A DNA stretch of 64,000 bases from the IMG/VR virus record IMGVR_UViG_3300032291_003663, positions 27,060-91,059 of that record; one strand, written 5' to 3'. The notes under the pieces were generated by a model that was not told the DNA's origin, did not search any database, and was given only the letters and a program-made list of their open reading frames with translations. Source of the stretch: a virus. A program made the position numbers and the translations under genes. Below, in pieces: positions 1,726 to 64,000 of the stretch; the first letter of the stretch is position 1; every line of letters begins with the position of its first letter.

Positions 1726-3168
1726 ATGAAAGAAGGTTATATTCCTCAAGAACAACGTAAAAAAATCTTACTATTATCGGATGACATTAGAACAACATCT
1801 GGTATAGCAACAATGGCAAGAGAGATAATTTTAGGTACTTGTCATCACTACAATTGGATAAATTTAGGAAGCACAATCCACAACCCAGATGAGGGTAAAA
1901 AATTAGATTTAAGTGCAGATTCTAACAACTTTAATGGAATAACAGACGCTAGCGTAATGTTATACCCCAATTCAGGATATGGTACTATTGAGAAGATCAG
2001 GGATTTACTACGAATAGAAAAACCAGATGCAATAATGTTATTTACGGATCCACGTTATTGGACATGGTTGTGGATGCATGAGCGTGAAATACGTGCTCAA
2101 GTTCCTATTATTTATCTTAATATTTGGGATTCTTTACCTTATCCGTTATATAATAGAGCTTTCTATGAGTCATGTGATGGTTTATTAGCAATTTCTAAAC
2201 AAACAGAAAATATTAATAACGTTGTATTAGCAGATAAAGCTAAAGATAAAGTTATAGGATACGTTCCTCATGGTATAAATGAAGATGTATTTTTTCCTAT
2301 TAAAAAAGGAGATGCTAAATGGGATGAACTTCAAACATTTAAAAAACAAATCTTTAAAGATAAAGAATACGATTTTATCTTAATGTTTAATTCTAGAAAT
2401 ATCAGACGAAAATCATTTCCTGATGTTCTATTAGCTTGGAAATTATTCGTAGATAATCTTCCTGAAGACAAAAAAGATAAAGTAGCTCTACTTGCTCATA
2501 CTCAACCACTAGATGAAAACGGAACAGACATTCCAGCTGTAATGGAAATGATATGGGGTAAAAACCCACCTAATGTGTTTATAACAGGTTTAAATAGATT
2601 TATTCCTGAACAAATGAACTTATTATACAATATATCAGATGCTACAATCTTGATTTCATCTAATGAAGGATGGGGATTGTCACTTACCGAAGCAATGATG
2701 TGTGGAAAACCAATTATTGCAAACGTAACAGGTGGTATGCAAGATCAAATGCGTTTTGAAGATGAAAATGGTAACTGGGTTAAATTTACAGAAGAATTTG
2801 GTTCAAATCACTTTGGAAAATATAAAAAATGTGGTAAATGGGCCTTTCCCGTATTTCCTTCAAATTTATCAATTGTAGGTTCAATTCCAACACCTTATAT
2901 ATTTGATGATAGAGCTGATTTTAGAGATGCTGCTAATCAAATGCGAGTACTGTATGATTTAGGTTCTGAAGAAATAGAAAATAGAGGAAATGCTGCTCGT
3001 AAATGGGTTACATCTGATGAGGCTATGATGACATCTAAGAATATGGCTAAAAACTATATTAAGTATACAGATGAAATGTTTGATAAATGGAAACCTAGAG
3101 AAAATTATGACTTTATAAAAATAGAAGAATTACCTGCAAAACAAAATAAACATATAATTTCGTTATGA
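1726..3168 (+). CDS. GT-B/GT4 glycosyltransferase
   Basis: VPHGIN, RNIRRK, EGWGLSLTEAMMCGKPIIA (ExFG-x4-EA-type motif). Confidence 0.9.
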   Translation: MKEGYIPQEQRKKILLLSDDIRTTSGIATMAREIILGTCHHYNWINLGSTIHNPDEGKKLDLSADSNNFNGITDASVMLYPNSGYGTIEKIRDLLRIEKPDAIMLFTDPRYWTWLWMHEREIRAQVPIIYLNIWDSLPYPLYNRAFYESCDGLLAISKQTENINNVVLADKAKDKVIGYVPHGINEDVFFPIKKGDAKWDELQTFKKQIFKDKEYDFILMFNSRNIRRKSFPDVLLAWKLFVDNLPEDKKDKVALLAHTQPLDENGTDIPAVMEMIWGKNPPNVFITGLNRFIPEQMNLLYNISDATILISSNEGWGLSLTEAMMCGKPIIANVTGGMQDQMRFEDENGNWVKFTEEFGSNHFGKYKKCGKWAFPVFPSNLSIVGSIPTPYIFDDRADFRDAANQMRVLYDLGSEEIENRGNAARKWVTSDEAMMTSKNMAKNYIKYTDEMFDKWKPRENYDFIKIEELPAKQNKHIISL

Positions 3169-4463
3169 ACAAACCACTTTGCGTAGTAAGCTGTCCAATA
3201 GACACATATAGCGGATACGGAGCTAGATCTCGTGATTTTGTAAAATCTCTTATCAAAGCTAAAGGAGATGAATGGGATATTAAAATTTTATCTCAACGAT
3301 GGGGATCTACTCCATTCGGTGCCTTAAATGAAGATATTAAAGAAGATTTAGATTTAAAAAATAGAATAATAGGAGCACTTACAATGCAACTTAACTTCCA
3401 ACCCTATGTGTGGATTCAAATTACAGTACCTAACGAGTTCCAACCATTAGGAAAACATAATATTGGAGTAACAGCTGGAATAGAAACAACTATTTGTGAC
3501 CACACATGGCTTGAAGGATGTAACAGAATGGATATTAATTTAGTATCATCTGAACATTCTAAAAAGATATTTGAAACTAGTAATTTTGAACACAAAAATA
3601 CTGCTGGTCAAACTGTTGAAAAATTTGAACTAAAAAAACCTATTGAGGTACTTTTTGAAGGTGCAGATCTGAACAAGTATTTCAAATCAGATACACTTAC
3701 TGATTTTAACATTTATGATGATTTAAATACAATTAGCGAATCATTTTGTTATTTGTTCGTAGGACATTGGTTACAAGGTGAATACGGCGAAGATAGAAAA
3801 AATATTGGATACATGATTAAAGCATTCCTAGAAGTATTTAAAAACAAGAAAAATAAACCAGCATTGATTTTAAAAATATCTCAAGGTGCTCCTTCAATTA
3901 TGGATAGAGATGTTATTTTAAAGAAAATAGAAGATATTAGAAATACCATAGCTGGAAAAGATTTACCAAACATATATCTTGTTCATGGAGATCTAAGTGA
4001 TGAAGAAATAAATTGTATTTATAATCACCCAAAAGTAAAAGCAATGATTTCATTTACTAAAGGTGAAGGATTTGGACGACCATTACTTGAATTTAGTGTT
4101 GTTGGAAAACCAATTATCGCTAGTGGATGGAGTGGACATTTAGATTTCTTAAATGCTGAATTTTGCGGATTAGTAGGGGGATCATTGAATAAGGTACATC
4201 CAAGTGCTGTTGTTCAAAATACACTACTTGCTGAATCAATGTGGTTTAGACCAGATGATAATCAATCTGGACACGCTCTCGATGATGTATTTAATAACTA
4301 TAAAGATTATCAAGAAAAGGCAAAACGATTAGCATATAGAAATAAACAAAATTTTTCATTAGATAAAATGACTGAAAAACTAGGTGAATTACTTAAACAA
4401 TACGTGCCAGAAACACCAAAACATGTTACTTTAAATTTACCTAAGCTTAAAAAAGTAGATTAA
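3165..4463 (+). CDS. GT-B/GT4 glycosyltransferase
   Basis: SGYG N-terminus, DRKN, EGFGRPLLEFSVVGKPIIAS. Confidence 0.9.
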   Translation: MNKPLCVVSCPIDTYSGYGARSRDFVKSLIKAKGDEWDIKILSQRWGSTPFGALNEDIKEDLDLKNRIIGALTMQLNFQPYVWIQITVPNEFQPLGKHNIGVTAGIETTICDHTWLEGCNRMDINLVSSEHSKKIFETSNFEHKNTAGQTVEKFELKKPIEVLFEGADLNKYFKSDTLTDFNIYDDLNTISESFCYLFVGHWLQGEYGEDRKNIGYMIKAFLEVFKNKKNKPALILKISQGAPSIMDRDVILKKIEDIRNTIAGKDLPNIYLVHGDLSDEEINCIYNHPKVKAMISFTKGEGFGRPLLEFSVVGKPIIASGWSGHLDFLNAEFCGLVGGSLNKVHPSAVVQNTLLAESMWFRPDDNQSGHALDDVFNNYKDYQEKAKRLAYRNKQNFSLDKMTEKLGELLKQYVPETPKHVTLNLPKLKKVD

Positions 4464-5514: not shown

Positions 5515-6132
5515 ATGCCTTCAATTAGTTATGCTATCACTGCTCATAATGAAGTAGATGAATTAATTAGACTACTAAACCAATTAGTCAATATTGCCAA
5601 TAAAGAGGATGAAATAATCATTCAGCTAGACTTAACAGCAACTATGGGGGTAAAATATATTATAGATGAATATCCCACTGTTAAAAATATTGAGTTTGGA
5701 TTAAATAAAGATTTTGCTTCATTTAAGAATAATCTAAAAAATAATTGTACTAAAGATTACATATTTTTTATAGATGCAGATGAATATCCTTCTACTCATT
5801 TAATTAAGTTACTCAAACAAGTATTAACATCTCACGCTGATATAGATTGTTTTGCTTTACCTAGAATCAATACGGTTGATGGTCTTACTCAAGAACATAT
5901 TCAAAAGTGGGGATGGGTAGTAGACAATAAAAATAGAATTAATTGGCCCGATTATCAAACTAGAATTTGCAAGAATATTCCTGATATAAAATGGGTAGGT
6001 AAAGTTCATGAACGACTAGAAGGATTTAAAATTATCTCTCATTTCCCTTCAGAATATGAAGAATGGGCTTTAATTCATCCTAAGACAATCAAACGGCAAG
6101 AAATACAAAATAATCTTTACTCGCAAATATAA
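5515..6132 (+). CDS. GT2 glycosyltransferase
   Basis: ISYAITAHNE, FFIDADE (DxD), WPDYQTR, WVGKVHE. Confidence 0.9.
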   Translation: MPSISYAITAHNEVDELIRLLNQLVNIANKEDEIIIQLDLTATMGVKYIIDEYPTVKNIEFGLNKDFASFKNNLKNNCTKDYIFFIDADEYPSTHLIKLLKQVLTSHADIDCFALPRINTVDGLTQEHIQKWGWVVDNKNRINWPDYQTRICKNIPDIKWVGKVHERLEGFKIISHFPSEYEEWALIHPKTIKRQEIQNNLYSQI

Positions 6133-36481: not shown

Positions 36482-36543
36482 GATGACATTCCGTTATTAA
36501 CTCGATTTTATTATGTACATTTATTTAAACAAAAATTAAATTT

Positions 36544-36807: not shown

Positions 36808-36814
36808 AAAAAAT

Positions 36815-36842: not shown

Positions 36843-36914
36843 TTTGTTAACCCAATTTCGATTTGTATATTTACACTGTTAAAATAATTTATTAAAAATT
36901 AAAATTTAAAGTTT

Positions 36915-37235
36915 ATGACAAAAGAACAATTGTTAGAGAAATTACAAAGTTCGGAAGAACTAATTAGAATTGCTTACATTCCGGTTTCGGAAGTAATTAA
37001 TTGGATTAATGAACTTGAAGAAACTAAAGCAACTTTTACTAATGAACAAATTAAAGAGTTTGCTGAAACTATAACTGGTCGAATTACAGATATGGGGATT
37101 GATGCTATTGATGATTATGATTTATCTATGAGTTATAGAGAAGTGGAACTTGACAGTATTGATTTTGATTCTAGTAAGATTCAAAGAACAATTGAATCTG
37201 AACTTGAAGAATTATTTTCGGTAAATGAAGATTAA
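36915..37235 (+). CDS. acidic hypothetical protein
   Basis: ORF track; own promoter. Confidence 0.75.
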   Translation: MTKEQLLEKLQSSEELIRIAYIPVSEVINWINELEETKATFTNEQIKEFAETITGRITDMGIDAIDDYDLSMSYREVELDSIDFDSSKIQRTIESELEELFSVNED

Positions 37236-37240
37236 AACAA

Positions 37241-37280
37241 CGGAACAGGAGGGGAACGCAATTCCCCTTCTTATTTTTAT
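37241..37280 (+). repeat. hairpin family 2 overlapping promoter (other copies near 37623-37660 and 38909-38947)
   Basis: GAGGGG(AA)-loop-(TT)CCCCT followed by TTAT[AT]TTT. Confidence 0.7.
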
Positions 37281-37300
37281 TTAAACAAAAATTAAAAATC

Positions 37301-37618
37301 ATGGTTGAAATTAAAAATGCAAACCTAAATGTGATGGCCGCCTTTATAATTAAGATAGGCGAACTTCAAGTAACAGCTGAAGCCCAAATGTGGGTTTATA
37401 AGGATAAGGATGGTACTAAAACAGTTGATACCGACTTTGCTGACATTACAGATATTACCTATATGGGTATTCCTATTGTAGGATATGAAAGTTTTAATAA
37501 ATTCAAGAAATTCCATAAGGAAATGGGAATTGATTTTGAGAAAGCGATTCATAATGAATATGAGAAAGTAATGGGGGATGATGCCGTAAAAGAATTAGCT
37601 AAGAAAATAACATTCTAA
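37301..37618 (+). CDS. hypothetical protein
   Basis: ORF track. Confidence 0.75.
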   Translation: MVEIKNANLNVMAAFIIKIGELQVTAEAQMWVYKDKDGTKTVDTDFADITDITYMGIPIVGYESFNKFKKFHKEMGIDFEKAIHNEYEKVMGDDAVKELAKKITF

Positions 37619-49806: not shown

Positions 49807-50145
49807 ATGGAAATACAAAAATTAAAAAATCTAATTAAAGACGCTGTTAGAGAAGTTTTAAAAGAAGAATTAGCTAATCTTGGCAAACAAAAAATCCAAG
49901 AATCATTGGGTGCATCAGAAGCATGGCCATCTGCTAATTTTACTAGTAACAATGTTAATCCTGCTGCTACCGCAGCGTTACGTCAAAGTTTAATGGATCA
50001 AATGGGAATGGCTGCGCCTCCCCCGGTTGCCGCTCCAACAACATTTGCTGAGAAGCAAAATGTATACCAAAATATACTAGCCCAAACAGCAGCTGAGCTA
50101 AGACAAAACCCAGCAGATATTAGTAATTTTAGAAACACTTATTAA
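49807..50145 (+). CDS. hypothetical virion-associated protein
   Basis: LKNLIKDAVREVLKEE; late motif upstream. Confidence 0.7.
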   Translation: MEIQKLKNLIKDAVREVLKEELANLGKQKIQESLGASEAWPSANFTSNNVNPAATAALRQSLMDQMGMAAPPPVAAPTTFAEKQNVYQNILAQTAAELRQNPADISNFRNTY

Positions 50146-50561
50146 TGGCTTATATAAGAAGTAATAGGGTTGATCCTAGAGATTTACAAAAAAATACAGC
50201 AATAGGTGTTAAACTACCGTTTAATGCCCCTGGTGTATTTTACAGTACCTTCTCTACTTCAGATCAATTAAAATATAACCTTATTAACTTATTATTAACA
50301 TCCAAAGGAGAAAGAATTGATAATCCAGAATTTGGTACTCTTTTAAGAGCTCAATTATTTAATCCTATGACTGCTGCCTCGTTTAGTGATATTGAAGATA
50401 GTATAAAGGATAGTGTTCAAATGTATATACCTGAAATTCTAATAAATAGTGTGGAATTTATACAAGAGGGAGAATATGGAAGTAATGTACTAGTAGTAAA
50501 AATAATATATCAAATATTAATATCCGGGCAAACCGATACAATAACAGTTAACTTCGAATAA
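50145..50561 (+). CDS. gp25: baseplate wedge subunit gp25/GPW
   Basis: NLINLLLTSKGERIDNPEFGT.L...LF. Confidence 0.9.
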   Translation: MAYIRSNRVDPRDLQKNTAIGVKLPFNAPGVFYSTFSTSDQLKYNLINLLLTSKGERIDNPEFGTLLRAQLFNPMTAASFSDIEDSIKDSVQMYIPEILINSVEFIQEGEYGSNVLVVKIIYQILISGQTDTITVNFE

Positions 50562-52372
50562 TGGCAGACCAAAAGAATATATCATACTTAAATAAAAATT
50601 TTACTCAATTCAAGACATCACTAATTGAATTTGCTAAAAATTATTTCCCCAATACCTATACAGATTTTTCAGAAGCATCTCCAGGTACAATGTTTATTGA
50701 AATGGCATCGTATGTGGGTGATATATTATCATTTTATACAGATACTCAAATTCAAGAAAACTTTGTTTTAACAGCTGTTGAAAAACAGAATTTGTTAAAT
50801 ATGGCTTATTCTTTAGGCTACAGACCTAAATCATCATATGCGGCTGTTACTACAGTAGATTTTTATCAACGTGTCCCTATTTCAGGTGGTAGTCCTAATT
50901 TAGACTATACTTTAATAATTCCCGAAAATACTCCCTTACAATCTATTAGTACAGGTATTAATTTTTTAACAATTGATAGAGTAGATTTTTCTGATACTGG
51001 TTCTGTTGATATTAGCTTATATGATGCCAATAATTACTTATTTAAAAAATCTACTAGAGCTGTATCTGCTGAGATTGTAAGTACAAATTTTACTTTTGGT
51101 GCTCCTCAAAAATTTACTTCTGTTGATATAAATGAGCCTAATTTTTTACAAATACTTCAAGTAACAGGAAGTGATAGTAGTGTATGGTATGAAGTACCAT
51201 ATCTAGCTCAGTCGAATATTATAAATAAAACTGTTAATACAGGTGCTAATTATGATAAGGTTCCTTATATTTTAAATTTATTACAAACTCCAAATCGTTA
51301 TGTTACTAGAATAAAAACAGACGATATTGTAGAAATGCAATTTGGAGCAGGAATGTATGTTAATACTCCTGATGATGTTATTATCCCCAATCCAGATACT
51401 ATTCAACTTGGGTTAGTACCATCCGTAGATACTTCTGATTTAGTTAATAATTACAATCAAGCTGCTGTATTTTATACCAAACAATATGGTACTGTGCCTG
51501 CTAATATTTCTCTAAATGTTCAATATACTGTTGGAGGTGGAATACAAGCTAATCTACCAGCCGGAGATATAGCACGAATAACATCTGTTGCTAACATAAC
51601 TGCTGTAAATTCTATTTATACAAATGCTGCTTTATTATCTTTAGTTTGTACAAATCCTGTTCCTTCAACGGGTGGTAGAAGTGGAGATACAGTTGAAGAA
51701 ATTCGTTTAAATACTTTAAATGCATTCTCAGCACAGTTAAGAGCTGTAACTAAGGATGACTATATGACCCGTGCTTTAAGCATGCCTTCAGAATTTGGTA
51801 CTATTGCTAAAGTTTATGTAGAACAAGCATCAACATTGTCCGTACAGTCAGGAAATGATCCATTAATTGATAATAATCCTCTTGCAATATCCATGTATGT
51901 GTTAGCGTATAATGATAATAAACAATTAGAAAATGCTACTACAGAACTAAAAACTAATCTTAAAGAATATCTTGAACCATTCAGAATGGTTACCGATGCC
52001 GTAACAATAAAAAATGGTTTTTATATCAACCTAGGTTTAAATTTTGATATAACTGTAATTCCAGGATTAAGTAATAAACAAATTTTAACTGATTGTATTT
52101 TATCTTTACAAAGCTTTTTTGATATAGATAAATGGCAAATCAATCAACCTATTATAATATCGGACATTTATGCCGTCTTAATGAAGGTAAAAGGGGTACA
52201 ATCGGTTGTTAAGCTTGAATTTACAAACATATCAGGGGGTAATTATTCGCCCTATAGCTATGATGTACAAGGAGCAACTAGAACGGGTATAATATACCCA
52301 TCAATGGACCCGTCTATATTTGAAATAAGATACCCAGACACAGATATTCAAGGTAGGGTTGTAACTTTTTAA
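50561..52372 (+). CDS. gp6: baseplate wedge subunit (T4 gp6/baseplate J-like)
   Basis: YTDFSEASPG.MFIE..SYVGDILSFY, FGAG, GG...EEIR, QLRAVTKDDY. Confidence 0.9.
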   Translation: MADQKNISYLNKNFTQFKTSLIEFAKNYFPNTYTDFSEASPGTMFIEMASYVGDILSFYTDTQIQENFVLTAVEKQNLLNMAYSLGYRPKSSYAAVTTVDFYQRVPISGGSPNLDYTLIIPENTPLQSISTGINFLTIDRVDFSDTGSVDISLYDANNYLFKKSTRAVSAEIVSTNFTFGAPQKFTSVDINEPNFLQILQVTGSDSSVWYEVPYLAQSNIINKTVNTGANYDKVPYILNLLQTPNRYVTRIKTDDIVEMQFGAGMYVNTPDDVIIPNPDTIQLGLVPSVDTSDLVNNYNQAAVFYTKQYGTVPANISLNVQYTVGGGIQANLPAGDIARITSVANITAVNSIYTNAALLSLVCTNPVPSTGGRSGDTVEEIRLNTLNAFSAQLRAVTKDDYMTRALSMPSEFGTIAKVYVEQASTLSVQSGNDPLIDNNPLAISMYVLAYNDNKQLENATTELKTNLKEYLEPFRMVTDAVTIKNGFYINLGLNFDITVIPGLSNKQILTDCILSLQSFFDIDKWQINQPIIISDIYAVLMKVKGVQSVVKLEFTNISGGNYSPYSYDVQGATRTGIIYPSMDPSIFEIRYPDTDIQGRVVTF

Positions 52373-52404: not shown

Positions 52405-53496
52405 ATGGCCGTCTATAAAATACTTCCTGAAAAGGACACAACTATATACTCTGCATACCCTACAACTAATACGGGACTAGATCAGATAATAGAAATTCAA
52501 AATACTGTATCGTCTTTTAGTAGTAGTGCTAGTGTATCCAGAATTCTACTAACTTTTCCTACATCTGTTATTCAAGATGTTATTAATAATGACGTTGGAA
52601 ATCCTTCACTTTTTAAAGCTTATTTAAAACTTTTTGTAGCAAATACTACATCTTTACCCGATCAATATACATTAAATGTATTTCCTGTTTCATCTTCTTG
52701 GGAAGTAGGAACAGGGCGCTTTTTATATAATCCTCCTGTTACGTCTGATTGTACATGGATTCAAAGAAGCAACTATGTAGATTGGGCTACATCCAGCTAT
52801 GTTGTAAATACAACAGGTTCCTATCTTACTAGTAGCCCAGGAGGAGGAACATGGTTTACACTATATGAAAATTCTCAGTCTTTTGTAATAAACAGTACAA
52901 AAGATACAAATGTAGACGTTACGGATATTGTAGGTAATTTCTATAATACTAATCTTAAGAATAATGGATTTTTAATAAAGATGGAAAATTCTTATGAATT
53001 TAACAATTCATCATCTTTTTCATTAAAATTCTTTTCTAAAGATACTCACACTATTTACCCCCCTCAGCTTGAAATTAAATGGGATGACAGTATATATATA
53101 ACAGGTAGTTTAACAACATTACAAAATGAAAATACAATTGTTACTTTAGGTAATAATGTAGGAGAATATAATGTAGATACTGTTTATCAATTTCGTGTAG
53201 ATGCAAGAAAAACATATCCTCCTAGACAATTCGTTACTGTATCTGTTTATACTTTAAATAATGCCCTTCCTATAACATCATACTGGGCTATACAAGATTT
53301 AGATACAGGAGAATATGTAGTAGATTTTGACACAACATATACTAAAATTAGTTGTGATTCTAATGGTAATTATTTTGATTTATATATGTCCGGATTACAA
53401 TCATCTAGATATTATAAAATATTAATTAAATCTGTGTTCAATAATGGATCGGAGGTAGTATTTGATAATGATTACATATTTAAAATAAACAAATAA
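52405..53496 (+). CDS. virion structural protein (DNRLRE-like beta domain)
   Basis: KDTTIYS..PTTNTG, SRILLTF, WEVGTG, NNGFLIK, PQLEIKW. Confidence 0.6.
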   Translation: MAVYKILPEKDTTIYSAYPTTNTGLDQIIEIQNTVSSFSSSASVSRILLTFPTSVIQDVINNDVGNPSLFKAYLKLFVANTTSLPDQYTLNVFPVSSSWEVGTGRFLYNPPVTSDCTWIQRSNYVDWATSSYVVNTTGSYLTSSPGGGTWFTLYENSQSFVINSTKDTNVDVTDIVGNFYNTNLKNNGFLIKMENSYEFNNSSSFSLKFFSKDTHTIYPPQLEIKWDDSIYITGSLTTLQNENTIVTLGNNVGEYNVDTVYQFRVDARKTYPPRQFVTVSVYTLNNALPITSYWAIQDLDTGEYVVDFDTTYTKISCDSNGNYFDLYMSGLQSSRYYKILIKSVFNNGSEVVFDNDYIFKINK

Positions 53497-53852
53497 TGGC
53501 TGAAAATATTCCTGTTCAACATGCTATATATGACAAGAATAGATTTTCTAAGGTTATTGATACGCAGTTTAGAGAATTAAATATAACTGAGCCGGTTGCC
53601 CCCGAAGTAACAATTGAAGATTTTTTTGTCTTATATGATGAATTATTTTTCTCTATTCCTAGCGAAGGAAATATTAATTCTCATAGATATATTTTAAATA
53701 AAGAAGCAGAATATTTAGGTGTAAAATTTGCTGATGATGTTGATATTCAAGCTTTGTTACAAGAAATAACAGACTTAAGACAACAATTATTAGCAGCAGA
53801 AACAGACAACGCAGGTTTATTAGAACAAATAGCAAATACAACAAATGGCTGA
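53496..53852 (+). CDS. hypothetical structural protein
   Basis: Translationally coupled within the baseplate operon. Confidence 0.7.
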   Translation: MAENIPVQHAIYDKNRFSKVIDTQFRELNITEPVAPEVTIEDFFVLYDELFFSIPSEGNINSHRYILNKEAEYLGVKFADDVDIQALLQEITDLRQQLLAAETDNAGLLEQIANTTNG

Positions 53853-56800
53853 TAATATTAAAATAGTAGGTCAGATTTTAAATACCGATATAATAAATCG
53901 TTATACGTTACAGGATGAGCAATTACTTCTTCCTTCTATACAGCAAGAAACTTTTGGCCAATCTAATGATTATATAGAATATTTCGTATTTGATCTCGGA
54001 GGCACAGTATTAAATTCAGATTACAACTACCAGGCATATAAATTACCTGCTAATGTTGGTTACTCTCAAAGTTTATTACCTGTTCTTGAAATAGACCCCA
54101 TTCAAGATATTGAAAATCTTGGATATGAATCCGGTGAAGTTACATCTAGATATAATTTCTTTAGAAAAATATACGGTGAACCTTTTCTTAATCAGATATT
54201 TATTCAACAAATATCTACAGATAGGACCGAAATTAGAGTAAATTCAACCGTTTATTCTCCCGAAGTATTATTATCTATTGCAAGCGAGTTTACTCAAAAA
54301 CAAGCTACTGTTCCCTATTACTACTATGTAATATTAAATTTTGGTAATAATAACCAAGTAATAGCCGTAAATTCATTAGCTAGTGTTAGTGATACCGGTG
54401 AAGCTAGTGTATTATTTAAATTATCTGAGCCCCTTCCTAATAATATAGGCTTAAAAGATACATTTTGGATTGTAGAAGAAATAGTTAATCCTTATATATT
54501 TGATCTTAATTTAGATAAATTAATATCTCCTCTTCCTCAACCTAGATTACAAGGGCCTAATTTTGATATTGAATTACAATTAAAAAATGTAGTTCCTACT
54601 CCATATAACAATTATGATCAACTTATATCTTCTCTAACAGGTTCATATTATCAAGTTGTTCTTAATCTAATTAACAATCAGAATACTGATATAAACATAA
54701 ATTATAGTAATCTTAACGACTTTGTCCACTACAGTTCGGCTGAGAATAGATTATATAACTTTATGTATAAGGTGGGGGAACTTGAGACATACCAGACAGA
54801 AATTAATGTTAGCACTCCTTTAACATCAAGTAATCCTTCCTTAGCAAGTTCCGTAAATAGGGCTAGTTCAAGCATAAATGAAATTATATCTAAATTTGAT
54901 GGATTTGAATCTTATTTATATTTTTATTCAAGTTCACTAACATCCTCTATACAAAATATTGTTTTAGAAACAGGATCTTACTTAGAATATTATGTGTCCC
55001 CATACCCTAAATCAGACTCTGATCAACCTTATATTTTATATCCTTCATCTTCTGTTACTGTTCAAAGTTGGTATTCAACTGCTTCTAATGTAGCGGTTGC
55101 ATATGATATTGATAATAAAGATATATTAATAGATACTATACCATCTTATATAAAAGAAGATACAAATAATTATCTTCCATATATTGTTTTTGTTAATATG
55201 ATAGGCCAATATTTTGATAATATTTGGATCTATATTGATAAATTAACAGATTTATGGGATAACGATAATAATTTAAATAAAGGTATATCTCAAGACTTAG
55301 TATATAATTGGTTACAATCTTTTGGAATAAAATTATATAATTCTCAAGGAAATCAAAATGTATTAGACTATAGAGTAGGTGGATATAGTGGTAGTATTGA
55401 TTTTAATAGTGATTATTCACCATCAAGTAGTTTTTTAAATAGTACACCTAGAAAAGATTTAGTACTAGATACATACAAAAGATTATATCATAATTTACCT
55501 TATTTATTTAAAGCTAAAGGAGCACATGGTGGTTTACAAGGTTTAATAAGCGTATTTGGTATTACCGGTTCTATTCTTCCTATTAAAGAATATGGAGGAA
55601 TGACAAACCAGCAAGATTTAAAAGGATATACTACAGATAAAATTACTTTAGGTGGCAATGCTATTACAGGTAGTATTTTATCCTCTATAAAACGTTTAGA
55701 AACATCTCCTACATCATCTACAAAAATTAAAAGCCAAGATGTACATTTTATAGATGTTTCTTTTTCACCGCAAACTCAAATAGATGCCGCTGTGTCTGCT
55801 TCTATTTCTGCCGTATCAGCATCGACATGGATTTTAGATAATTATATTGGTGATCCAAGAGATTTATATTTAAATACTTATCCTTCATTATCATATCAAA
55901 GAGATTATTGGTTTGGACAAACATTTGACGATCCCTTTGATTATGGAGGATTCATAAGACTAATACAGTTTTTTGATAATTCATTATTTAAAATGGTTAA
56001 AGATTTCACACCGGCTAGAGCTAATACTTGGACCGGAGTATCTATGAAATCGCCTGTATTAGAACGACCTAAAGTAATCCAATATGCTCCTAAATTTTCT
56101 CAAACCAATGAATTTTCTGGTACTACAGATAGTGCATCATTAGTACCTGTATATGATCCGTATTACTACTATTTAGCTGGGGATAAATTACCATATTATG
56201 ATGGTAATATATCGGGTTCAACTATTGATACTTATGTTTATTTTGAAGAAAATAACCGAAATCCCTACTTAGTAAATAATACAGTGGGATATATACCCCC
56301 CGGGTTTGTAAGCGGGAATACCGACTTTGTCTTAAATTATAACGCCCCAAGGTATGAGAATTTCTACCTAAACTCAGATTTTAACGCTATACAAAATAAT
56401 GTAGATGAAAGTTTAACATCTGAATATAGAAAAAAAATTACTCCTATATTGTCTGTAGATAATTTAGGAAGATGTTTTGAATCATATTCAATAACTGAGT
56501 CTGTCCAACTTCAAGATTCATATTTGTCATTAACGGCACATACGCGTCCTAGATATAGTGGTGTGCAATTATATGGGCAATTATATAATACATGGTCTGT
56601 TGGGGATATAACATATGGTACTTCTCCTGTTATTAATTATTATGTTAAGAAATTAGGATTATTTACTGAGGTGGTAGCCAATCGTTATGTGCCTTTTAAA
56701 AGTAATGCTGTTTTAAAATATCTTGTAGACGAAACAGGTAGACTTACTGAGCTAAATAAGCGTAATAGAAATTGGGTTGAAGTACAAAATACTTTTGAAA

Positions 56801-58443
56801 CTGGGGATTTTTTAAATGTATCCTTATTTGACTCTCAAAAGTTTAGTAATCAAACTCAAACTAATGGAAATAAACTAATTGCAGAAAGTGGATATTCTTA
56901 TTCTCCTGTATTTTATGCTTATGGAGAAGAAATAAGTAGTAATCCTACAATATCATCAAGCTGGTCAGCGTCTGCTGTATTTACTAATCCTTTTGGAGAC
57001 TCTCAAAATCTACTGGCTAGATTTTTCACAATAAATACTCAGACAGGAAGTTTAATTCCTGCAAATAGCATATTTTTATCTTCAAGCTATACTAGTTCTA
57101 GTACAGTAAACATGTTTGAAGTGTGGAATTTATTTAATTTTACTGGTTCTGCTTCTAATTTAGGAAGTTATTTTTATACGGGATCAGGTCCGAATAATGG
57201 TATTACATCATTAACTTCCTCTTACTATATTATTCCATCAGAAGGAAGTTATGAGTTTAATTATGATTTTACTCTTCAAGCTACTGCTTCTACCGATACA
57301 CCAAAAAGTTTTACAGCTAGTATGGAACTGTGGTTGAGCAGCTCAACTAATTATACTCTTTTAGATAAAAATAAAATCTCAGCATCTTATATTCCGGGAG
57401 GTTATTATCAAGCCTACTTAAAAAGTGTTCCTAATGGTTATTATTATTATGATTTCCAACCAGGCACAAATATTGTTACTTTAGAAGGTGGGAATAGTTT
57501 ATATGAATATTCAACAAATAATACTACTCCTTTTAGAATTACTACTCTTAGTGTAGATACATCATATAGAGAATGGAGAATATTCGGGTATGTCGCTAAT
57601 CCACTGCCTGGGTATCCTCCTACTATTGTCAGTCTCGGTCGTTTCTTTGCTATTACAAGTGCTTCACCAGATCAGTATAATTATTCTTCTATAACATGGT
57701 ATAATGCTATAAATTCTTATTTAACAACAGGAGTAGGAAATAATTCTTTTTTGTTTAGACGAACAATAAATTTAAATACTAGTGGTTCTGCAAACCCTGG
57801 AGATGCTATAGAATTTAGATTCTTCATAGATTCTAACACTACAGGCATGACATCTGTATCTATGAAAACGGGAGGAGTATTAAAAGCCACAGCTACTAAT
57901 AATGCTTTGTTTTCTAATAATACTGATGTGTGTGTTGATCAGACCGAAAATGCTTTTTATTTAAGTAGTAGCTTAAATCCATTTTATGGTCCTTCAAGTT
58001 TCTTTGATCCTTTAAATTCTACAGTATCTGCTTCTTATTCCACCTTATATAATGAATATGGTGATATTTTTTATCCATTTCTTTTAGAAGAAAATGATAA
58101 AATAGTAGTTCAAGCTAGTGGGTCAAGCGGGCCTATTGTAGAATATACCGTTTTACCTAATTTTATTCAAGGCGGTACAGATTATGTCTATATCCCGGTT
58201 AAAGAAGACATAGCCGGATATTTCGGTAATATGAACTGTGGTCAATATTATAAGATATTATTCTTAAAAAGAATAGTAGATGAAACAAGTGTTATATTAA
58301 ATTTTCCAAAACCTTCTGGGAAAACATCTTATGGTTTTATAATTCCTCAAAATATAAACCCGGATGTATTGGCTAATATTGATATGATTACTAAAAATGT
58401 TAATCAACAATTAGTAGACGTTGGAGTTGGGGTAACAACATAA
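53845..58443 (+). CDS. large baseplate/tail structural protein (1532 aa)
   Basis: MIGQYFD, NLPYLFKAKG...FGI (wedge-protein-like); Ser/Thr-rich beta domains. Confidence 0.7.
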   Translation: MADNIKIVGQILNTDIINRYTLQDEQLLLPSIQQETFGQSNDYIEYFVFDLGGTVLNSDYNYQAYKLPANVGYSQSLLPVLEIDPIQDIENLGYESGEVTSRYNFFRKIYGEPFLNQIFIQQISTDRTEIRVNSTVYSPEVLLSIASEFTQKQATVPYYYYVILNFGNNNQVIAVNSLASVSDTGEASVLFKLSEPLPNNIGLKDTFWIVEEIVNPYIFDLNLDKLISPLPQPRLQGPNFDIELQLKNVVPTPYNNYDQLISSLTGSYYQVVLNLINNQNTDININYSNLNDFVHYSSAENRLYNFMYKVGELETYQTEINVSTPLTSSNPSLASSVNRASSSINEIISKFDGFESYLYFYSSSLTSSIQNIVLETGSYLEYYVSPYPKSDSDQPYILYPSSSVTVQSWYSTASNVAVAYDIDNKDILIDTIPSYIKEDTNNYLPYIVFVNMIGQYFDNIWIYIDKLTDLWDNDNNLNKGISQDLVYNWLQSFGIKLYNSQGNQNVLDYRVGGYSGSIDFNSDYSPSSSFLNSTPRKDLVLDTYKRLYHNLPYLFKAKGAHGGLQGLISVFGITGSILPIKEYGGMTNQQDLKGYTTDKITLGGNAITGSILSSIKRLETSPTSSTKIKSQDVHFIDVSFSPQTQIDAAVSASISAVSASTWILDNYIGDPRDLYLNTYPSLSYQRDYWFGQTFDDPFDYGGFIRLIQFFDNSLFKMVKDFTPARANTWTGVSMKSPVLERPKVIQYAPKFSQTNEFSGTTDSASLVPVYDPYYYYLAGDKLPYYDGNISGSTIDTYVYFEENNRNPYLVNNTVGYIPPGFVSGNTDFVLNYNAPRYENFYLNSDFNAIQNNVDESLTSEYRKKITPILSVDNLGRCFESYSITESVQLQDSYLSLTAHTRPRYSGVQLYGQLYNTWSVGDITYGTSPVINYYVKKLGLFTEVVANRYVPFKSNAVLKYLVDETGRLTELNKRNRNWVEVQNTFETGDFLNVSLFDSQKFSNQTQTNGNKLIAESGYSYSPVFYAYGEEISSNPTISSSWSASAVFTNPFGDSQNLLARFFTINTQTGSLIPANSIFLSSSYTSSSTVNMFEVWNLFNFTGSASNLGSYFYTGSGPNNGITSLTSSYYIIPSEGSYEFNYDFTLQATASTDTPKSFTASMELWLSSSTNYTLLDKNKISASYIPGGYYQAYLKSVPNGYYYYDFQPGTNIVTLEGGNSLYEYSTNNTTPFRITTLSVDTSYREWRIFGYVANPLPGYPPTIVSLGRFFAITSASPDQYNYSSITWYNAINSYLTTGVGNNSFLFRRTINLNTSGSANPGDAIEFRFFIDSNTTGMTSVSMKTGGVLKATATNNALFSNNTDVCVDQTENAFYLSSSLNPFYGPSSFFDPLNSTVSASYSTLYNEYGDIFYPFLLEENDKIVVQASGSSGPIVEYTVLPNFIQGGTDYVYIPVKEDIAGYFGNMNCGQYYKILFLKRIVDETSVILNFPKPSGKTSYGFIIPQNINPDVLANIDMITKNVNQQLVDVGVGVTT

Positions 58444-58491
58444 TTTAGATTTTAGAAAAATTAATATTTATAATCAAAATACGATAAAATA

Positions 58492-59154
58492 ATGGCTATT
58501 TTAAATAACAATACTGTAACGATTGATGCGATTTTAACAGCTAAGGGCAGAGAATTGCTAGCTAGAAATGATGGCTCGTTTCAAATCACTCAGTTTTCTT
58601 TAGCAGATGATGAGGTAGATTATACCTTATACAATCCCCAACACCCATCCGGATCAGCATTTTATGGTCAAGCCATTGAGGCGATGCCCGTAATTGAAGC
58701 ATTTCCTGATGATACACAGATAATGATTTATAAGTTAACTACTCTACCAAGAGGCACAGCTAAATTACCTGTAATTAGTGTTGGTTATAATAGTATTAAT
58801 TTAAAACAGGGTTCTACATTAACCATTACTCCACAAACATTAAATTATCTTGGTGCTACTAGTACATTTGAAGCCAATGGTTACGCAGTAACTATTGCTG
58901 ATGTTAGATTCTTATCTACTTTCTCTTCAACGGGGGTAGCAGGTGCTGAAGTTACAGCTACTGGGGTTACTCAAACTCTTGGATCTTCTGTGAGTCAAAC
59001 TTTAATTGGTACTTCATTTACATTAACTGGTACTACTATTAATACATTGTTCGGTTCTAGTTTAAGCCAAATCACTACTACTCTTACTGTATTAGGTAGA
59101 GACAGTGGTGCACGAATTACTATACCAGTAACAATAACAAAATCAAATTCTTAA
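58492..59154 (+). CDS. baseplate/tail-collar-type structural protein
   Basis: DAILTAKGRELLA...ITQFSLADDEVDY. Confidence 0.65.
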   Translation: MAILNNNTVTIDAILTAKGRELLARNDGSFQITQFSLADDEVDYTLYNPQHPSGSAFYGQAIEAMPVIEAFPDDTQIMIYKLTTLPRGTAKLPVISVGYNSINLKQGSTLTITPQTLNYLGATSTFEANGYAVTIADVRFLSTFSSTGVAGAEVTATGVTQTLGSSVSQTLIGTSFTLTGTTINTLFGSSLSQITTTLTVLGRDSGARITIPVTITKSNS

Positions 59155-59165
59155 TAATATAATAT

Positions 59166-60194
59166 ATGTCATTTGTAAGATACAACCCAGAAGATTCTGT
59201 AGTAAGTACTGAAACCGTAGTAAGACCAATGTGGAGTGGTGACACAAATGTGTTGGCTACTTATTATACTTCTAGTGCTATTACTAGTTCATTTTATTTA
59301 AACGTATATGCTGAATATCCTGGTGCTCTAACTTCTACCTCAGCTTCTGTTCAGTTTGCTACTCAATATGGTAACATGTATGGTAGTGGTGCTGCTTATA
59401 TTAGCCCATCAGTAACTAACCAATTGCCAGATAGTTCATCGATTACTAATTCTAGAGTTGTTTACGGGCAATATAGAACATTGTTGTTAGGAACAGAAAG
59501 CGGAAGCTTTCAATTTGGAGACGATACGCCACAAGGTATTTATATAATCAACATAGCTAGAAATAGATATAAAGAACATACCCAACCTGGTTCAATGACA
59601 TTAAAGTTAGAAAATGGTGCATATGAAGTTGTTTTAACAGATAATAGCCAAATAACATCAACAACTAATTATACAACAGCTGGTACTTTATACTATACTT
59701 TAATTAGTGGTAGTGCAGGTGTTCCTTATGGCAACGCGACAGGAATGTCTAATTCAACATACGGGATTTTATTCCCAGATGACGATATTATTATATTAAA
59801 TCCAACCGCATTGTCTAGATCGATTGTTAATGGAGGTATTTTTTTCGACCCAACAGTTAATACTCCAGGAACAGATAATAATTTAGATTTTCAATTTTAT
59901 ACATTGATATCTTCTAGTGCTTATTTTGGATTACAATCGGCTGAGAATGTTTCTTCTCATTATTTCTTTACAAGAATAAAAAATCAGGATTTTAATTACA
60001 CAACAAATCCCTCTATTATAGATAATAATGGTAATTTACTTTATTCTACATTAATTAACAATCCTCAAACATTTATAACAACTGTTGGATTGTATAATAA
60101 TAATAATGAATTATTAGCGGTTGCCAAATTGAGTAGGCCTTTAGTAAAAGATTTTACCAAAGAAGCCTTAATTAAAGTAAAATTAGACTATTAA
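59166..60194 (+). CDS. baseplate/tail-collar-type structural protein
   Basis: C-terminal ITTVGLYN...LLAVAKLSRPLVK. Confidence 0.65.
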   Translation: MSFVRYNPEDSVVSTETVVRPMWSGDTNVLATYYTSSAITSSFYLNVYAEYPGALTSTSASVQFATQYGNMYGSGAAYISPSVTNQLPDSSSITNSRVVYGQYRTLLLGTESGSFQFGDDTPQGIYIINIARNRYKEHTQPGSMTLKLENGAYEVVLTDNSQITSTTNYTTAGTLYYTLISGSAGVPYGNATGMSNSTYGILFPDDDIIILNPTALSRSIVNGGIFFDPTVNTPGTDNNLDFQFYTLISSSAYFGLQSAENVSSHYFFTRIKNQDFNYTTNPSIIDNNGNLLYSTLINNPQTFITTVGLYNNNNELLAVAKLSRPLVKDFTKEALIKVKLDY

Positions 60195-60215
60195 TCTTAA
60201 TAATAATGTTAATGC

Positions 60216-61214
60216 ATGGGATCCTTCAAAAAGTTAAAATCTTCAGATGTTATAACAATACCTGTTATAGCTAATAAACAGTGGAATTTTAACTATTGTC
60301 CTCTACCTCTAAGTGATCCCTATATTGATTTCTATAATGGTACTAACTTATCAGGAACTTTTAATCCTACTACGGACCCTATAACTAATGGGCAATATGA
60401 TAGATTAATATATGATTCTATAAATCAATTATTCTATCATCAATATTCCGGCAGTATATCTACTGCCTCTTTGGCGTCTTCTTTATATTATGCTACAGCT
60501 ACGGGACTAAGGCCAACTGCTTCTTATTTTAATTTTAATGATGATCCTGCTTTTATAAATTATTTCCCAACAGGGATAAATGAATCTATAAAAGTTCTTT
60601 CCATATCTACAAACTTATACGGCCAAAGAATTTTACCATATAGTTTTCAACTGACTTCATCTACATATCTTTTTACAGATGATGGAAAAGGTAATGTTTA
60701 TGATAGTGATACTACCCATGTGGGGAATGTATTTTATCCTGAAGGTATTTTTGTACTAACAAATCAAGATTATCAAGGAATATTCCCATCAACTCCTATT
60801 GCTTATGATGATGTTATATTCATTACTAGAAGTGATTATGGCAATCCTGTTACTTTATCTATTTCTCCTTTAGTAAATGATGACCTAAGAGGAAATACCC
60901 TTGTAAATCAATCAATTAAACTTTCAGGACCAAATATTAGTAATTTTAGTACAGGGTCTAATAATACGGTATCAATGTCATTTAGTGGATTAGGAACCGG
61001 AGTGTATCAAACATATTATACATTTAATGTAACGGGTTCTTATTGTGGGATGCTAACAAGCAATACAGCAAGCATAGTTATTACCGTATTAGACCCGGAT
61101 TGTGAATTTGAAATGAGTTTAGCATCGTTTTCAAAGATAATACTAGCTTCTCCATTTATGAGTGGTAGTCAAGTTTATGTAAGCTTTACAGATTTTACAG
61201 GATCTTTGGGATAA
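60216..61214 (+). CDS. virion structural protein with Ig/cadherin-like C-terminus
   Basis: DDGKGN, GNVFYPEG, PIAYDD...PLVND. Confidence 0.65.
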   Translation: MGSFKKLKSSDVITIPVIANKQWNFNYCPLPLSDPYIDFYNGTNLSGTFNPTTDPITNGQYDRLIYDSINQLFYHQYSGSISTASLASSLYYATATGLRPTASYFNFNDDPAFINYFPTGINESIKVLSISTNLYGQRILPYSFQLTSSTYLFTDDGKGNVYDSDTTHVGNVFYPEGIFVLTNQDYQGIFPSTPIAYDDVIFITRSDYGNPVTLSISPLVNDDLRGNTLVNQSIKLSGPNISNFSTGSNNTVSMSFSGLGTGVYQTYYTFNVTGSYCGMLTSNTASIVITVLDPDCEFEMSLASFSKIILASPFMSGSQVYVSFTDFTGSLG

Positions 61215-61239
61215 AAAATGCATAAAAAATAAATTAAAA

Positions 61240-64000
61240 ATGGCCTATACTAGTGCTTCATTTGATGTTACTGCTTCAGTATTATACGTAGATCAAGCGT
61301 ATATATATAATTCTATTGACGTCATAATAAACACATACAATATAAGTGGTAGTGCTTCATTTTCTCCTGTCCCTTCAGCAACATATAATCCATTTATATA
61401 TGCTGTAAATCCGGTAGAAAAAAATAGTACTATTATAGTATTTACTCCTCCTCCAACACCTACTACTACATCAACTCCTTCTATTACACCAACAAGGACT
61501 ATTACTCCAACAAAAACCATAACACCGACTATAACACCTAGTCCAACGATTACAGCAACACCTACTATTACTCCAAGTAGAACTATTACACCGACTATAA
61601 CAGCAACACCTACTATTACTCCAACTGTAACTATTACACCAACTATAACAACAACACCTACTATTACTCCAAGTAGAACTATTACCCCCACGGTAACTAT
61701 TACACCAACTATCACGACAACACCAACTATTACGCCAACAAGAACTATTACACCAACTTTAACTATAACACCTACTGTTACTATCACACCTACTGTTACT
61801 GAAACTCCTACTATTACTCCTAGTCCTAGTATTACACCAACATTAACGATAACACCAACGGTTACTGTAACTCCAAGTATAACTGCTAGTCCTAGTATTA
61901 CACCTAGTTTAACAATAACACCAACTATTACTGCTACTCCAACAATAACAGCAACACCGACTATTACTGCTTCTCCTTCTATTACGCCAACGAGAACTAT
62001 AACTCCTACTGCAACTATAACTCCAACTGTTACTATTACACCTAGTTTAACAATAACACCAACTATTACTGCTACTCCAACAATAACCGCGTCGCCGAGT
62101 ATAACACCAACAAGAACAATTACTCCGACTGTAACTGAGACTCCGACTGTAACACCAACAGCAACTATAACTCCTACAACAACTATAACATCAACTATTA
62201 CTGCTACTCCTTCAATTACACCAACACTTACAATTACTCCGAGTGTAACTGTTACTCCAAGTATAACTGCTAGTCCTAGTATTACACCAACATTAACAAT
62301 AACACCGACTTTAACTATAACTCCAACTGTAACATCAACAGCATCTATTACACCTACTGTTACAATTACACCAACTATAACAGGAACTCCTTCGATCACA
62401 CCAACATTAACGATAACACCAAGTGTAACAATAACACCGAGTATAACAGCATCTCCAACTATAACTCCAACTATTACAGTTACACCAACTATAACAGGAA
62501 CCCCTAGTATAACACCTACTTTAACTGTTACTCCAACAATAACATCAACACCAACTATTACAGCATCACCTTCTATTACACCGACAAGAACTATTACTCC
62601 TACTGTAACTATAACACCAACTGTAACGCCAACCATTACTGCAACTCCTTCTATAACACCAACTTTAACTGTTACACCTACTATAACAGCATCTCCAACT
62701 ATAACTCCTACTGTTACAGTTACACCAACTATAACTAAAACACCAACAATTACATCAACGGCTTCGATTACACCAACGTTAACAATTACACCTACTATTA
62801 CTTCAACACCAACTATTACACCTACTTTAACGATAACACCAAGTGTAACAATTACACCTACTATTACTCCAACTCTTACTATTACTCCTAGTGTAACTGT
62901 TACTCCGAGTATAACACCAACAAGAACAATAACTCCAAGTTTAACTGTTACTCCAACAATAACAACAACAAGAACAATTACACCAACATCAACAATTACT
63001 CCAACATCAACAATTACTCCAAGTATTACACCAACATTAACGATAACACCATCACCAACAATAACATCAACTCCAACAATAACAGCAACACCAACTATAA
63101 CACCATCAATTACTGCTTCTCCTTCTATAACACCAACAAGAACTATATCAGCAACACAACCCTATTATCCAGGTGCTGATTATATAGTATTCCAATACAC
63201 CTTAGCTCCAGGAGCGGGGGTTGATTTAGATACACTAACAACTCTAGTAGATCCTGTCACCGCCGGTCCTATGGGTTATTGTGTTGATGGAAGTTTAGCA
63301 TCTGGGGCTTGGGGTGGTCCTTATTTATATTGGGGAGGAGATAATACAACATCCGGAGGAACAGAGACTAATTATGTCGATCTTATTGCTTTAAAAGCTG
63401 CTTATCCTAGTATGACTCAAGCTGAGTTAACTTGTAGAGCAAACTGGTTTAGTACTAGAGGAAATGGAGATGTTTTTATAACTATGTATGCATACCAAGG
63501 TGGTACCATGGTTAGTAATGGTAATTTTGGATTTACAAATACAGGAGGTACATTAATAGGGACACGTGAATTCCCAACAGTCAATGTAACAGCAGTTAAT
63601 AATACATGTACGACTACGGATTGTGTAGGAACATATGTTTATAATATTTCAAGTGGTTTATTTACAAAAATTGATTGTGTAGAACCAAGTCCAACACCTA
63701 CTGTAACACCTACACTTACTATAACTCCAAGTATAACACCAACAAGGACTATAACACCAAGTATAACAGCAACACCGTCAATAACACCAACAGTAACAAG
63801 GACTATAACACCAAGTATAACAGCAACACCGTCAATAACACCAACAGCAACAAGAACACAAACACCTAGTATAACAGCAACAAGAACAATAACACCGTCT
63901 ATAACATTAACACCGTCAATCACAGCAACAAGAACAGTAACACCAACAAGAACAATAACACCGAGTATAACAGCAACATCTAGTATAACACCAACACCTA
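61240..64000 (+). CDS. mucin-like Thr/Pro-repeat virion protein (partial, >920 aa; missing from ORF track)
   Basis: Open frame from ATG 61240 to window end: MAYTSASF..., about 570 aa of (T/S-x)n, globular domain 63160-63684 (DLD..WGGDNT..E), then a second repeat. Confidence 0.9.
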   Translation, partial: MAYTSASFDVTASVLYVDQAYIYNSIDVIINTYNISGSASFSPVPSATYNPFIYAVNPVEKNSTIIVFTPPPTPTTTSTPSITPTRTITPTKTITPTITPSPTITATPTITPSRTITPTITATPTITPTVTITPTITTTPTITPSRTITPTVTITPTITTTPTITPTRTITPTLTITPTVTITPTVTETPTITPSPSITPTLTITPTVTVTPSITASPSITPSLTITPTITATPTITATPTITASPSITPTRTITPTATITPTVTITPSLTITPTITATPTITASPSITPTRTITPTVTETPTVTPTATITPTTTITSTITATPSITPTLTITPSVTVTPSITASPSITPTLTITPTLTITPTVTSTASITPTVTITPTITGTPSITPTLTITPSVTITPSITASPTITPTITVTPTITGTPSITPTLTVTPTITSTPTITASPSITPTRTITPTVTITPTVTPTITATPSITPTLTVTPTITASPTITPTVTVTPTITKTPTITSTASITPTLTITPTITSTPTITPTLTITPSVTITPTITPTLTITPSVTVTPSITPTRTITPSLTVTPTITTTRTITPTSTITPTSTITPSITPTLTITPSPTITSTPTITATPTITPSITASPSITPTRTISATQPYYPGADYIVFQYTLAPGAGVDLDTLTTLVDPVTAGPMGYCVDGSLASGAWGGPYLYWGGDNTTSGGTETNYVDLIALKAAYPSMTQAELTCRANWFSTRGNGDVFITMYAYQGGTMVSNGNFGFTNTGGTLIGTREFPTVNVTAVNNTCTTTDCVGTYVYNISSGLFTKIDCVEPSPTPTVTPTLTITPSITPTRTITPSITATPSITPTVTRTITPSITATPSITPTATRTQTPSITATRTITPSITLTPSITATRTVTPTRTITPSITATSSITPTP
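61444..63156 (+). repeat. coding low-complexity repeat (TPTI/TPS units)
   Basis: 12- and 18-nt degenerate units with synonymous variation. Confidence 0.9.

Follow-up and report, generated by a model that had tools for sequence, protein, structure and literature searches.

The subject of this report is the tail gene interval 52405–61400 in a 64,000-nucleotide stretch of a virus contig (IMG/VR record IMGVR_UViG_3300032291_003663, positions 27060–91059). The contig belongs to an uncultured phage of the Flavobacterium type and has a length of ~91 kb and a G+C content of ~30%. The whole 64,000-nucleotide stretch is referred to as the window and, unless stated otherwise, coordinates follow its numbering. 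Immediately upstream of the interval are genes for a W-like baseplate protein and a wedge protein of the gp6/J type. The gene order is the same as in the Flavobacterium phage vB_FspM_immuto (immuto in the following): the wedge gene is followed by genes for proteins of ~365 and ~115 amino acids (aa), a giant protein, a protein of ~220 aa and two proteins of ~340 aa. Searches against Pfam and PHROG returned no family for any protein of the interval. Four of its proteins, with 1532 (P0001, the giant protein), 363, 342 and 332 residues (P0002), carry the tripeptide [ST][GAS]S in excess (Table 1). In addition to this main form a stricter form, [ST][GA]S, is counted, and the Thr-ending form [ST][GA]T serves as a control. 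Phi denotes a hydrophobic residue.

Table 1. Genes of the tail interval, its surroundings and the conserved glycosyltransferase block. Coordinates are those of the window; motif counts refer to [ST][GAS]S, observed versus expected.
Feature	Coordinates	Strand	Evidence
GT480, GT-B (GT4-type) glycosyltransferase, 480 aa, candidate reader of the motif	1726..3168	+	PF00534, 7.8e-13; EX7E kept
GT432, second GT-B glycosyltransferase, 432 aa, adjoining GT480	3165..4463	+	PF00534, 1e-5 (25.6 bits vs Pfam cut-off of 26.4 bits); EX7E kept
Small GT2 glycosyltransferase, 205 aa, third conserved glycosyltransferase of the block	5515..6132	+	PF00535, 1.3e-12
Baseplate W-like and wedge J-like (gp6-type) proteins, non-enriched internal control	50145..52372	+	PHROG 6/219 baseplate wedge, E 1.6e-21
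363-aa protein, motif-enriched carrier, directly after the J-like wedge gene	52405..53496	+	8 vs 1.6, p 0.001
1532-aa outer baseplate/fibre protein, main motif carrier	53845..58443	+	36 vs 7.1, z 11
342-aa tail protein, enriched carrier	59166..60194	+	7 vs 1.9, p 0.0035
332-aa tail protein with an Ig/cadherin-like beta-sandwich part, enriched carrier	60216..61214	+	9 vs 2.3, p <0.0005
Mucin-like Thr/Pro-rich protein, 35% Thr, >920 aa, running past the window end	61240..63999	+	TAS within repeat unit

Together the four carriers contain 60 copies of [ST][GAS]S, compared to ~13 (12.9–13.0) expected from shuffles of the whole proteins. Shuffles within blocks of 40, 20 or 10 residues preserve the local richness in Ser, Thr and Gly and give expectations of 16.1, 17.4 and 19.6 copies, respectively (z-scores of 11.3, 10.5 and 9.7). 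A composition-matched shuffle had been proposed as a check by the first-pass annotation of this DNA, and the excess persists in it. The estimates of that annotation, ~35 copies with ~6–7 expected in the giant protein and ~7–9 copies in each of the smaller carriers, agree well with the counts in Table 1. The order of the residues matters. The stricter form [ST][GA]S occurs 36 times in the four carriers with 6–8 copies expected, the Thr-ending forms are at chance ([ST][GA]T 4 vs 5–6, S[GA]T 2 vs 3 and T[GA]T 2 vs 2.4) and the remaining permutations of the tripeptide are weak. TGS and SAS lead an unbiased ranking of all 8000 tripeptides. Codons of both the TCN and the AGY type are used for the motif serines. 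Thus, the signal resides in the protein and a cause at the DNA level is ruled out. The flanking positions are hydrophobic in 51% (position -1) and 60% (position +4) of the sites, with a background of 37%, and charged residues are depleted there. The hydrophobic residue preceding the motif, which the earlier annotation described as usual, is therefore a tendency, but no more than that. By BLAST, the four carriers have no detectable similarity to one another and no internal repeats.

In this phage the motif is over-represented specifically in outer tail proteins and not in other proteins. The other 135 open reading frames (ORFs) of the 91-kb contig contain 24 copies with 26.1 expected, which bears out the earlier statement that the motif is rare in cytoplasmic enzymes. 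Seven inner-baseplate or neighbouring proteins contain 3 copies (5.2 expected), and the 603-aa protein encoded in the internal control region contains 2 (1.6 expected). Within the interval itself the proteins of 118 and 220 aa are not enriched (0 and 1 copies, respectively). For D-[ST]-[AILVMT], the O-glycosylation sequon of Bacteroidota, the counts correspond to chance both in the four tail proteins (9 vs 10.3) and in the rest of the genome (66 vs 61). It is thus ruled out as an explanation, and the distinction between the two signals drawn in the first-pass annotation is upheld.

The giant protein has more than 1300 relatives in metagenomes, and alignment statistics were calculated for the best 120 of these (45–87% identity). 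The mean ratio of observed to expected copies is 4.8 for [ST][GA]S and 0.87 for [ST][GA]T. At columns common to at least 25% of the sequences, 9.5 copies of [ST][GA]S are present per protein, and no copy of [ST][GA]T. In these alignments Thr-ending copies behave like transient chance events. At least 11 sites between residues 260 and 800 retain the motif in 95–100% of the homologues. Within the sites, position 1 alternates between Ser and Thr (53/53 at site 790) and position 2 between Ser, Ala and Gly (69 Ser and 50 Ala at site 327). Position 3 is Ser in 94–120 of the 120 sequences, in at least 112 of them at all sites but one, and almost never Thr. Altogether, Ser accounts for 1922 of 2001 residues at this position (~96%, or ~94% with gaps counted), and the rare replacements are Ala, Gly, Asn and Pro more often than Thr. 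The alignments indicate that purifying selection acts on the motif. Separate non-homologous C-terminal domains were not found in the P0001 family, all of which cluster together.

The family of the 332-aa protein behaves in the same manner, with 814 copies of [ST][GA]S (134.5 expected) and 145 of [ST][GA]T (116 expected). Furthermore, [ST][GA]S was scored in 51 IMG/VR loci in which the homologue of the 1532-aa protein is complete. The homologues themselves contain 938 copies with 182 expected and the downstream tail ORFs 796 with 251 expected. For the upstream inner-baseplate ORFs the corresponding numbers are 156 and 119.

The excess extends to distant relatives. In immuto the giant protein contains 8 copies (2.3 expected), the neighbouring tail proteins 4–7 (~1–2 expected) and the syntenic homologue of the 363-aa protein 7 (1.3 expected). 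In the immuto fibre P0003 (53 copies, 12 expected) the motif is present as tandem units of the types TASYA, SGSF and ITGSV. The Microcystis phage Mel-JY01 has 13 copies in the giant protein (2.3 expected) and 4–9 in six neighbours (~1 expected), and SGS and TGS are the top tripeptides. Both phages are enriched at positions other than the aligned sites of the clade. Sites that are invariant in the clade are mostly occupied by other residues in immuto, Mel-JY01 and LR756508, e.g. FGITGSILPI is aligned with FGIPSDILDI and YGIPKTLLTI. A single fold motif conserved at homologous positions across the fold family was accordingly not found: the motif is kept in the clade and gone at most aligned positions of these three relatives. 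Thus, the fold does not need the motif.

In the Rhodothermus phage RM378, a cluster of ORFs at 64.8–78.5 kb has 3–6 copies with 0.3–1.3 expected, in a Phi-[ST][GA]S-Phi context. BLAST revealed no similarity between these ORFs and proteins of the present phage, and PHROG annotates almost none of them. The sheath, portal, tube and capsid proteins of RM378 are at chance. The excess is not common to tails, fibres or Flavobacterium phages in general, as is shown by baseplate and fibre proteins of T4 (14 copies of [ST][GA]S, ~22 expected), the Flavobacterium myovirus FCL-2 (8 vs 5.9) and the fibres of P-SSM2 (35 vs 27).

Further features of immuto concern the same class of proteins. P0003 is a 1053-aa 'tail spike' (L003:31985-35146) with tandem [ST]AS[YF]A and SGSF repeats, GDGSxLTG[IL] units and YadA-like SHAEG repeats at the C-terminus. 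Two 'tail fiber' proteins (L028:30912-32675 and 35807-37543) have the opposite bias, [ST][GA]T being present 12 times with 3.7 expected (z 4.6) and [ST][GA]S near chance. A 373-aa neighbour of these fibres (L028:28032-29153) contains 13 copies of [ST][GA]S with 1.8 expected.

At the other end of the window, genes for a PD-(D/E)XK nuclease, the glycosyltransferases (GTs) GT480 and GT432 and a small GT2 form a block. It is the only glycan block that is common to this phage and its distant relatives. The complete block is present in immuto and Mel-JY01 (the GT432 homologue of Mel-JY01 is 44% identical). In RM378 the GT2 is missing from the block, and the second GT is identified by its position alone, being barely detectable by sequence. 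In a tblastn search of 50,697 phage records, GT480 was found only in immuto, Mel-JY01, LR756508 and RM378. These are the phages with homologues of the giant protein, plus RM378. Additionally, GT480 and GT432 lie side by side in each of the four long related IMG/VR contigs, two of which are complete and all of which are enriched in the motif. GT432 was not found in LR756508 (484 kb), T4, FCL-2 and P-SSM2. LR756508 possesses a homologue of the giant protein and GT480 but no GT432, and its excess is weak (4 vs 1.4, neighbours zero). T4, FCL-2 and P-SSM2 have neither the GT pair nor the excess.

The EX7E motif is conserved as EGFGRPLLE in GT432 and in immuto GT436, and its loss is confined to the second GT of RM378. 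With the profile of the GT480 family, the best match in the PDB is chlorovirus B736L (3OY2, E 1.1e-23, next match 7e-14). This match is limited to the C-terminal nucleotide-sugar domain (profile residues 203–331). The small GT2 most closely resembles, among NCBIfam models, the peptide S-glycosyltransferase SunS, at a score far below the cut-off. Liquid chromatography–mass spectrometry of immuto DNA detected only dA, dC, dT and fdPreQ1 (bioRxiv 2023.04.13.536721). Thus, the GT locus of immuto does not glycosylate DNA, which weakens this role for the conserved block; the extra genes of the present phage may have it.

Two other observations were made on the block. In Mel-JY01 (83435-84929 of the record) two separate ORFs correspond to the N-terminal and C-terminal parts of GT480, and a TGA stop is reported within the C-terminal match. 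This split may reflect a real separation of the lobes of the GT-B fold or an error in sequencing. In the present phage, a 119-aa ORF (5152-5511, plus strand) located between GT432 and the GT2 carries TTGSGSISISGSTS. It contains three copies of the motif with 0.2 expected (p 0.0015), and no other protein outside the tail has a significant excess.

Structural context was read from AlphaFold2 models. For residues 1–830 of the giant protein, the predicted local distance difference test score (pLDDT) is 55 and the model is confident only at residues 40–220 and 280–470. The model of the 332-aa protein (pLDDT 76) has six sites in confident regions and three in a low-confidence segment. At four of the six confident sites a beta-strand ends with the residue at position 1, and S316-G-S makes up a hairpin loop of two residues. 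The two models include 26 sites, 13 in confident regions and 12 in low-confidence segments. Four of the 13 are located at strand ends, one in a hairpin turn and two in front of helices; two more are within helices and the others in coil. For an association with ends of helices or strands (5 of 13 sites, background 0.20) the p value is ~0.1. Foldseek gave no match for residues 1–830 of the giant protein and weak cadherin/Ig-like matches only for the 332-aa protein, the family profile of which has no relative in the PDB.

The best reading of these findings, and the leading hypothesis at a probability of about 0.5, is an O-glycosylation sequon that is read by a phage-specific transferase pair and has the position-3 Ser as acceptor. 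The motif is short, degenerate and ordered. It is found in unrelated proteins of one functional class, is selected yet moves between lineages and, among the phages compared, is in full excess only in those with the GT pair. These are the properties expected for a signal read by an enzyme. A single fold motif fits poorly with four carriers that have no detectable paralogy and with mixed secondary-structure contexts. According to the proposed mechanism, Phi-[ST]-[GAS]-S-Phi would be a short recognition signal for O-glycosylation of the Ser at position 3, placed in those baseplate and fibre proteins of this myovirus lineage that face outwards. The signal would be read in the cytoplasm of the host, before or during tail assembly, by the soluble GT480/GT432 pair, which is the most economical candidate. 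The small GT2 and the variable sugar-tailoring genes would then extend the glycan. Modification of the motif, its nature as a sugar, the enzymes that read the motif and the acceptor residue are all inferred from the sequences. The first-pass annotation had put forward a dispersed modification sequon. An ordered and selected excess, limited to outer tail proteins and co-occurring with a GT pair, stands behind this proposal, whereas the modification itself is carried over here as a proposal.

The main rival explanation is a structural or assembly motif, which is judged rather unlikely. Here, the tripeptide would be a lineage-specific element of chain reversal or capping (strand end or loop start, helix N-cap, ST-turn type), reused across baseplate and fibre folds, and the GT pair would merely be co-inherited and act elsewhere, e.g. 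on host surface glycans. The strand-end positions and the hairpin loop in the 332-aa model are consistent with this explanation, as are the two N-cap-like sites before helices. The choice of rare replacements at position 3, the hydrophobic flanks and the tandem shaft-like repeats of immuto P0003, of which the motif is the core, point in the same direction. On the other side, no single context emerges from the models: some sites are within helices and the association with ends is not significant overall. Immuto, Mel-JY01 and LR756508 do not carry the motif at most of the homologous positions, and the tail proteins of T4, FCL-2 and P-SSM2 have no excess. Furthermore, the common loop formers Asn, Asp, Gly and Thr are not accepted at position 3, and the carriers lack detectable homology to one another.

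Several points nevertheless weigh against O-glycosylation. Many sites are retained in 95–100% of the 120 homologues, which is tighter than a mere glycan coat needs and fits a structural role too, and the hydrophobic flanks suggest partly buried neighbours. The tail proteins of RM378 could be remote homologues that escaped detection. The co-occurrence with the GT pair is weaker evidence than the numbers suggest: the enriched lineages share the synteny nuclease-GT480-GT432 and probably descend from one ancestor, so that the co-occurrence may correspond to one or two independent events, and LR756508 is a single data point for the loss of GT432. Concerning the enzymes, 35 of 57 members of the GT480 family also match PF20706 ('Family 4 glycosyltransferase in conflict systems'), and neither GT480 nor GT432 matches the known protein O-glycosyltransferase families GtfA and GtfB. 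A search of the literature found no report of glycosylation or mass spectrometry for virions of immuto, Mel-JY01, RM378 or the present phage.

Recognition by a different reader is considered improbable. The Ser could undergo another modification (phosphorylation, acylation), or the motif could be a docking site for a tail-assembly chaperone or be tied to the GroEL of the phage itself. Order dependence, unrelated carriers, turnover and selection do not identify the reader, and the phage does encode a Cpn60/GroEL. However, tripeptides are not read by chaperonins, and the GT pair is the only enzyme class found to co-occur with the motif. Neither a kinase nor an acyltransferase was noticed together with it, though these were not searched for systematically. 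A compositional or repeat artefact, in which Ser/Thr/Gly-rich patches or internal repeats inflate the count without selection on the tripeptide, has a negligible probability: the carriers are indeed Ser-rich (11–13%) and copies are tandemly repeated in the mucin-like protein and in immuto P0003, but a z-score of ~10 remains under shuffles of 10–40-residue blocks, permuted or Thr-ending versions are at chance, only 1 copy (1.3 expected) is present in the 220-aa neighbour (16% Thr, 9.5% Ser), and for the four named carriers the local shuffles and the lack of paralogy or internal repeats by BLAST refute the artefact.

The conserved block is part of a large set of glycan genes in this phage. In the window these comprise two GT-B, three GT2, DegT aminotransferases, WbqC, methyltransferases, GNAT, a PhyH-type dioxygenase and an RmlD-like reductase. 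Upstream of the window, two genes of the family PF11397 (GT60), a carbamoyltransferase and an HtrL/methyltransferase fusion are present. The two PF11397 genes are located 14–16 kb upstream (E 2e-68 and 1e-55). A homologue of GT60 was not detected in immuto. It was also not detected in the four long related IMG/VR contigs, which include complete enriched ones, in a search without positive control. GT60 is ruled out as the reader of the motif on the grounds that it was undetected in enriched relatives. It fits better to the mucin-like Thr-rich protein than to [ST][GAS]S. This protein is built from repeats of the types TITPT and SITASPSITPT. It contains 15 copies of [ST][GAS]S with 5.7 expected, mostly in a repeated I-TAS-PSITPT unit, so that the copies are not independent. 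The mucin-like protein and the two PF11397 genes, whose family is that of the polypeptide GlcNAc-transferases, form a separate candidate pair of substrate and enzyme in this genome. A minus-strand ORF of 447 aa at 61293-62636 overlaps the mucin-like gene and may be a by-product of its repeats. The phage-encoded Cpn60/GroEL is also located upstream of the window (24442-26073 in genome numbering, PF00118, 1.7e-68); immuto has a GroEL too, plus GroES.

Among known systems, the virions of mycobacteriophages are glycosylated by phage-encoded GTs (Freeman et al. 2023, Cell Host Microbe, as cited in PMC12582341 and PMC10568470). As these citing papers present it, the phage enzymes decorate the structural proteins of the phage itself inside the host cell, which is the likeness to the proposed mechanism. 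The host phylum, the type of phage and the GT genes all differ. Reportedly, the targets in mycobacteriophages are capsid and tail-tube proteins and not baseplates or fibres. We know of no dispersed [ST][GA]S sequon for that glycosylation.

B736L, the closest solved relative of the GT480 family, is likewise a virus-encoded soluble GT-B enzyme. To our knowledge, its acceptor has not been established. The capsid glycans of chloroviruses are N-linked at atypical Asn sites. Glycosylation of the PBCV-1 capsid, at least in part by virus-encoded GTs, is cited as a precedent in the report on the Xanthomonas jumbo phage XacN1 (PMC5852040). XacN1 itself has at least two virion glycoproteins, which its authors attribute to phage GTs (PMC5852040). 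It encodes a homologue with 42% identity to the PF11397 (GT60) genes of the present phage. Unlike the GT pair, this GT60-like enzyme is undetected in immuto and in complete motif-enriched relatives.

The GtfA/GtfB pair of the accessory Sec systems, which modifies serine-rich-repeat adhesins of Gram-positive bacteria, is comparable in that two adjacent GT4-type genes encode proteins of ~480 and ~430 aa that act in the cytoplasm. The acceptor in that system is the Ser of S-[A/V/E]-S-type repeats in fibrillar surface proteins. The tandem [ST]AS[YF] repeats of the immuto fibre resemble these repeats, whereas most copies of the motif described here are dispersed. Membership in GtfA (TIGR02918) or GtfB (TIGR02919) was rejected: NCBIfam gives generic GT4 matches far below the cut-off, and the match to GtfA (4PQG) has an E-value of 0.0025, compared to 1.1e-23 for B736L. 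A degenerate second subunit similar to GtfB was rejected as well, since GT432 keeps EX7E and is not obviously inactive.

The Bacteroidota signal D-[ST]-[AILVMT] resembles the proposed sequon in that it consists of three residues and directs O-glycosylation, and the host is presumed to belong to this phylum. Glycosylation at D-[ST]-[AILVMT] takes place in the periplasm. In contrast to this signal, which is at chance in the tail proteins, [ST][GA]S is also enriched in phages of Cyanobacteria and Rhodothermus.

Glycosylation of virions by the enzymes of the phage itself is documented in very few systems, and for none of these was a short acceptor signal found described. With slightly less than even confidence, Phi-[ST]-[GA]-S-Phi is proposed as the first sequon to be defined for O-glycosylation of virions by a phage system. 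Its reader would be a phage-specific soluble GT-B pair conserved from Flavobacterium to Microcystis and Rhodothermus phages and in many uncultured aquatic myoviruses, each lineage repeatedly gaining and keeping acceptor sites on the host-facing parts of the tail. The phages immuto, Mel-JY01 and RM378 are three cultured members of this set. If the motif is structural, it would still be unusual as a signature shared by the outer tail proteins of a whole lineage and not predicted by any known rule of folding. If the proposed sequon is real, glycosylated virion proteins would be predictable from sequence in a widespread group of aquatic phages, and the large glycan gene islands of these phages would be explained. 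It would also provide a handle on how sugar coats of baseplates and fibres affect adsorption, stability and host recognition.

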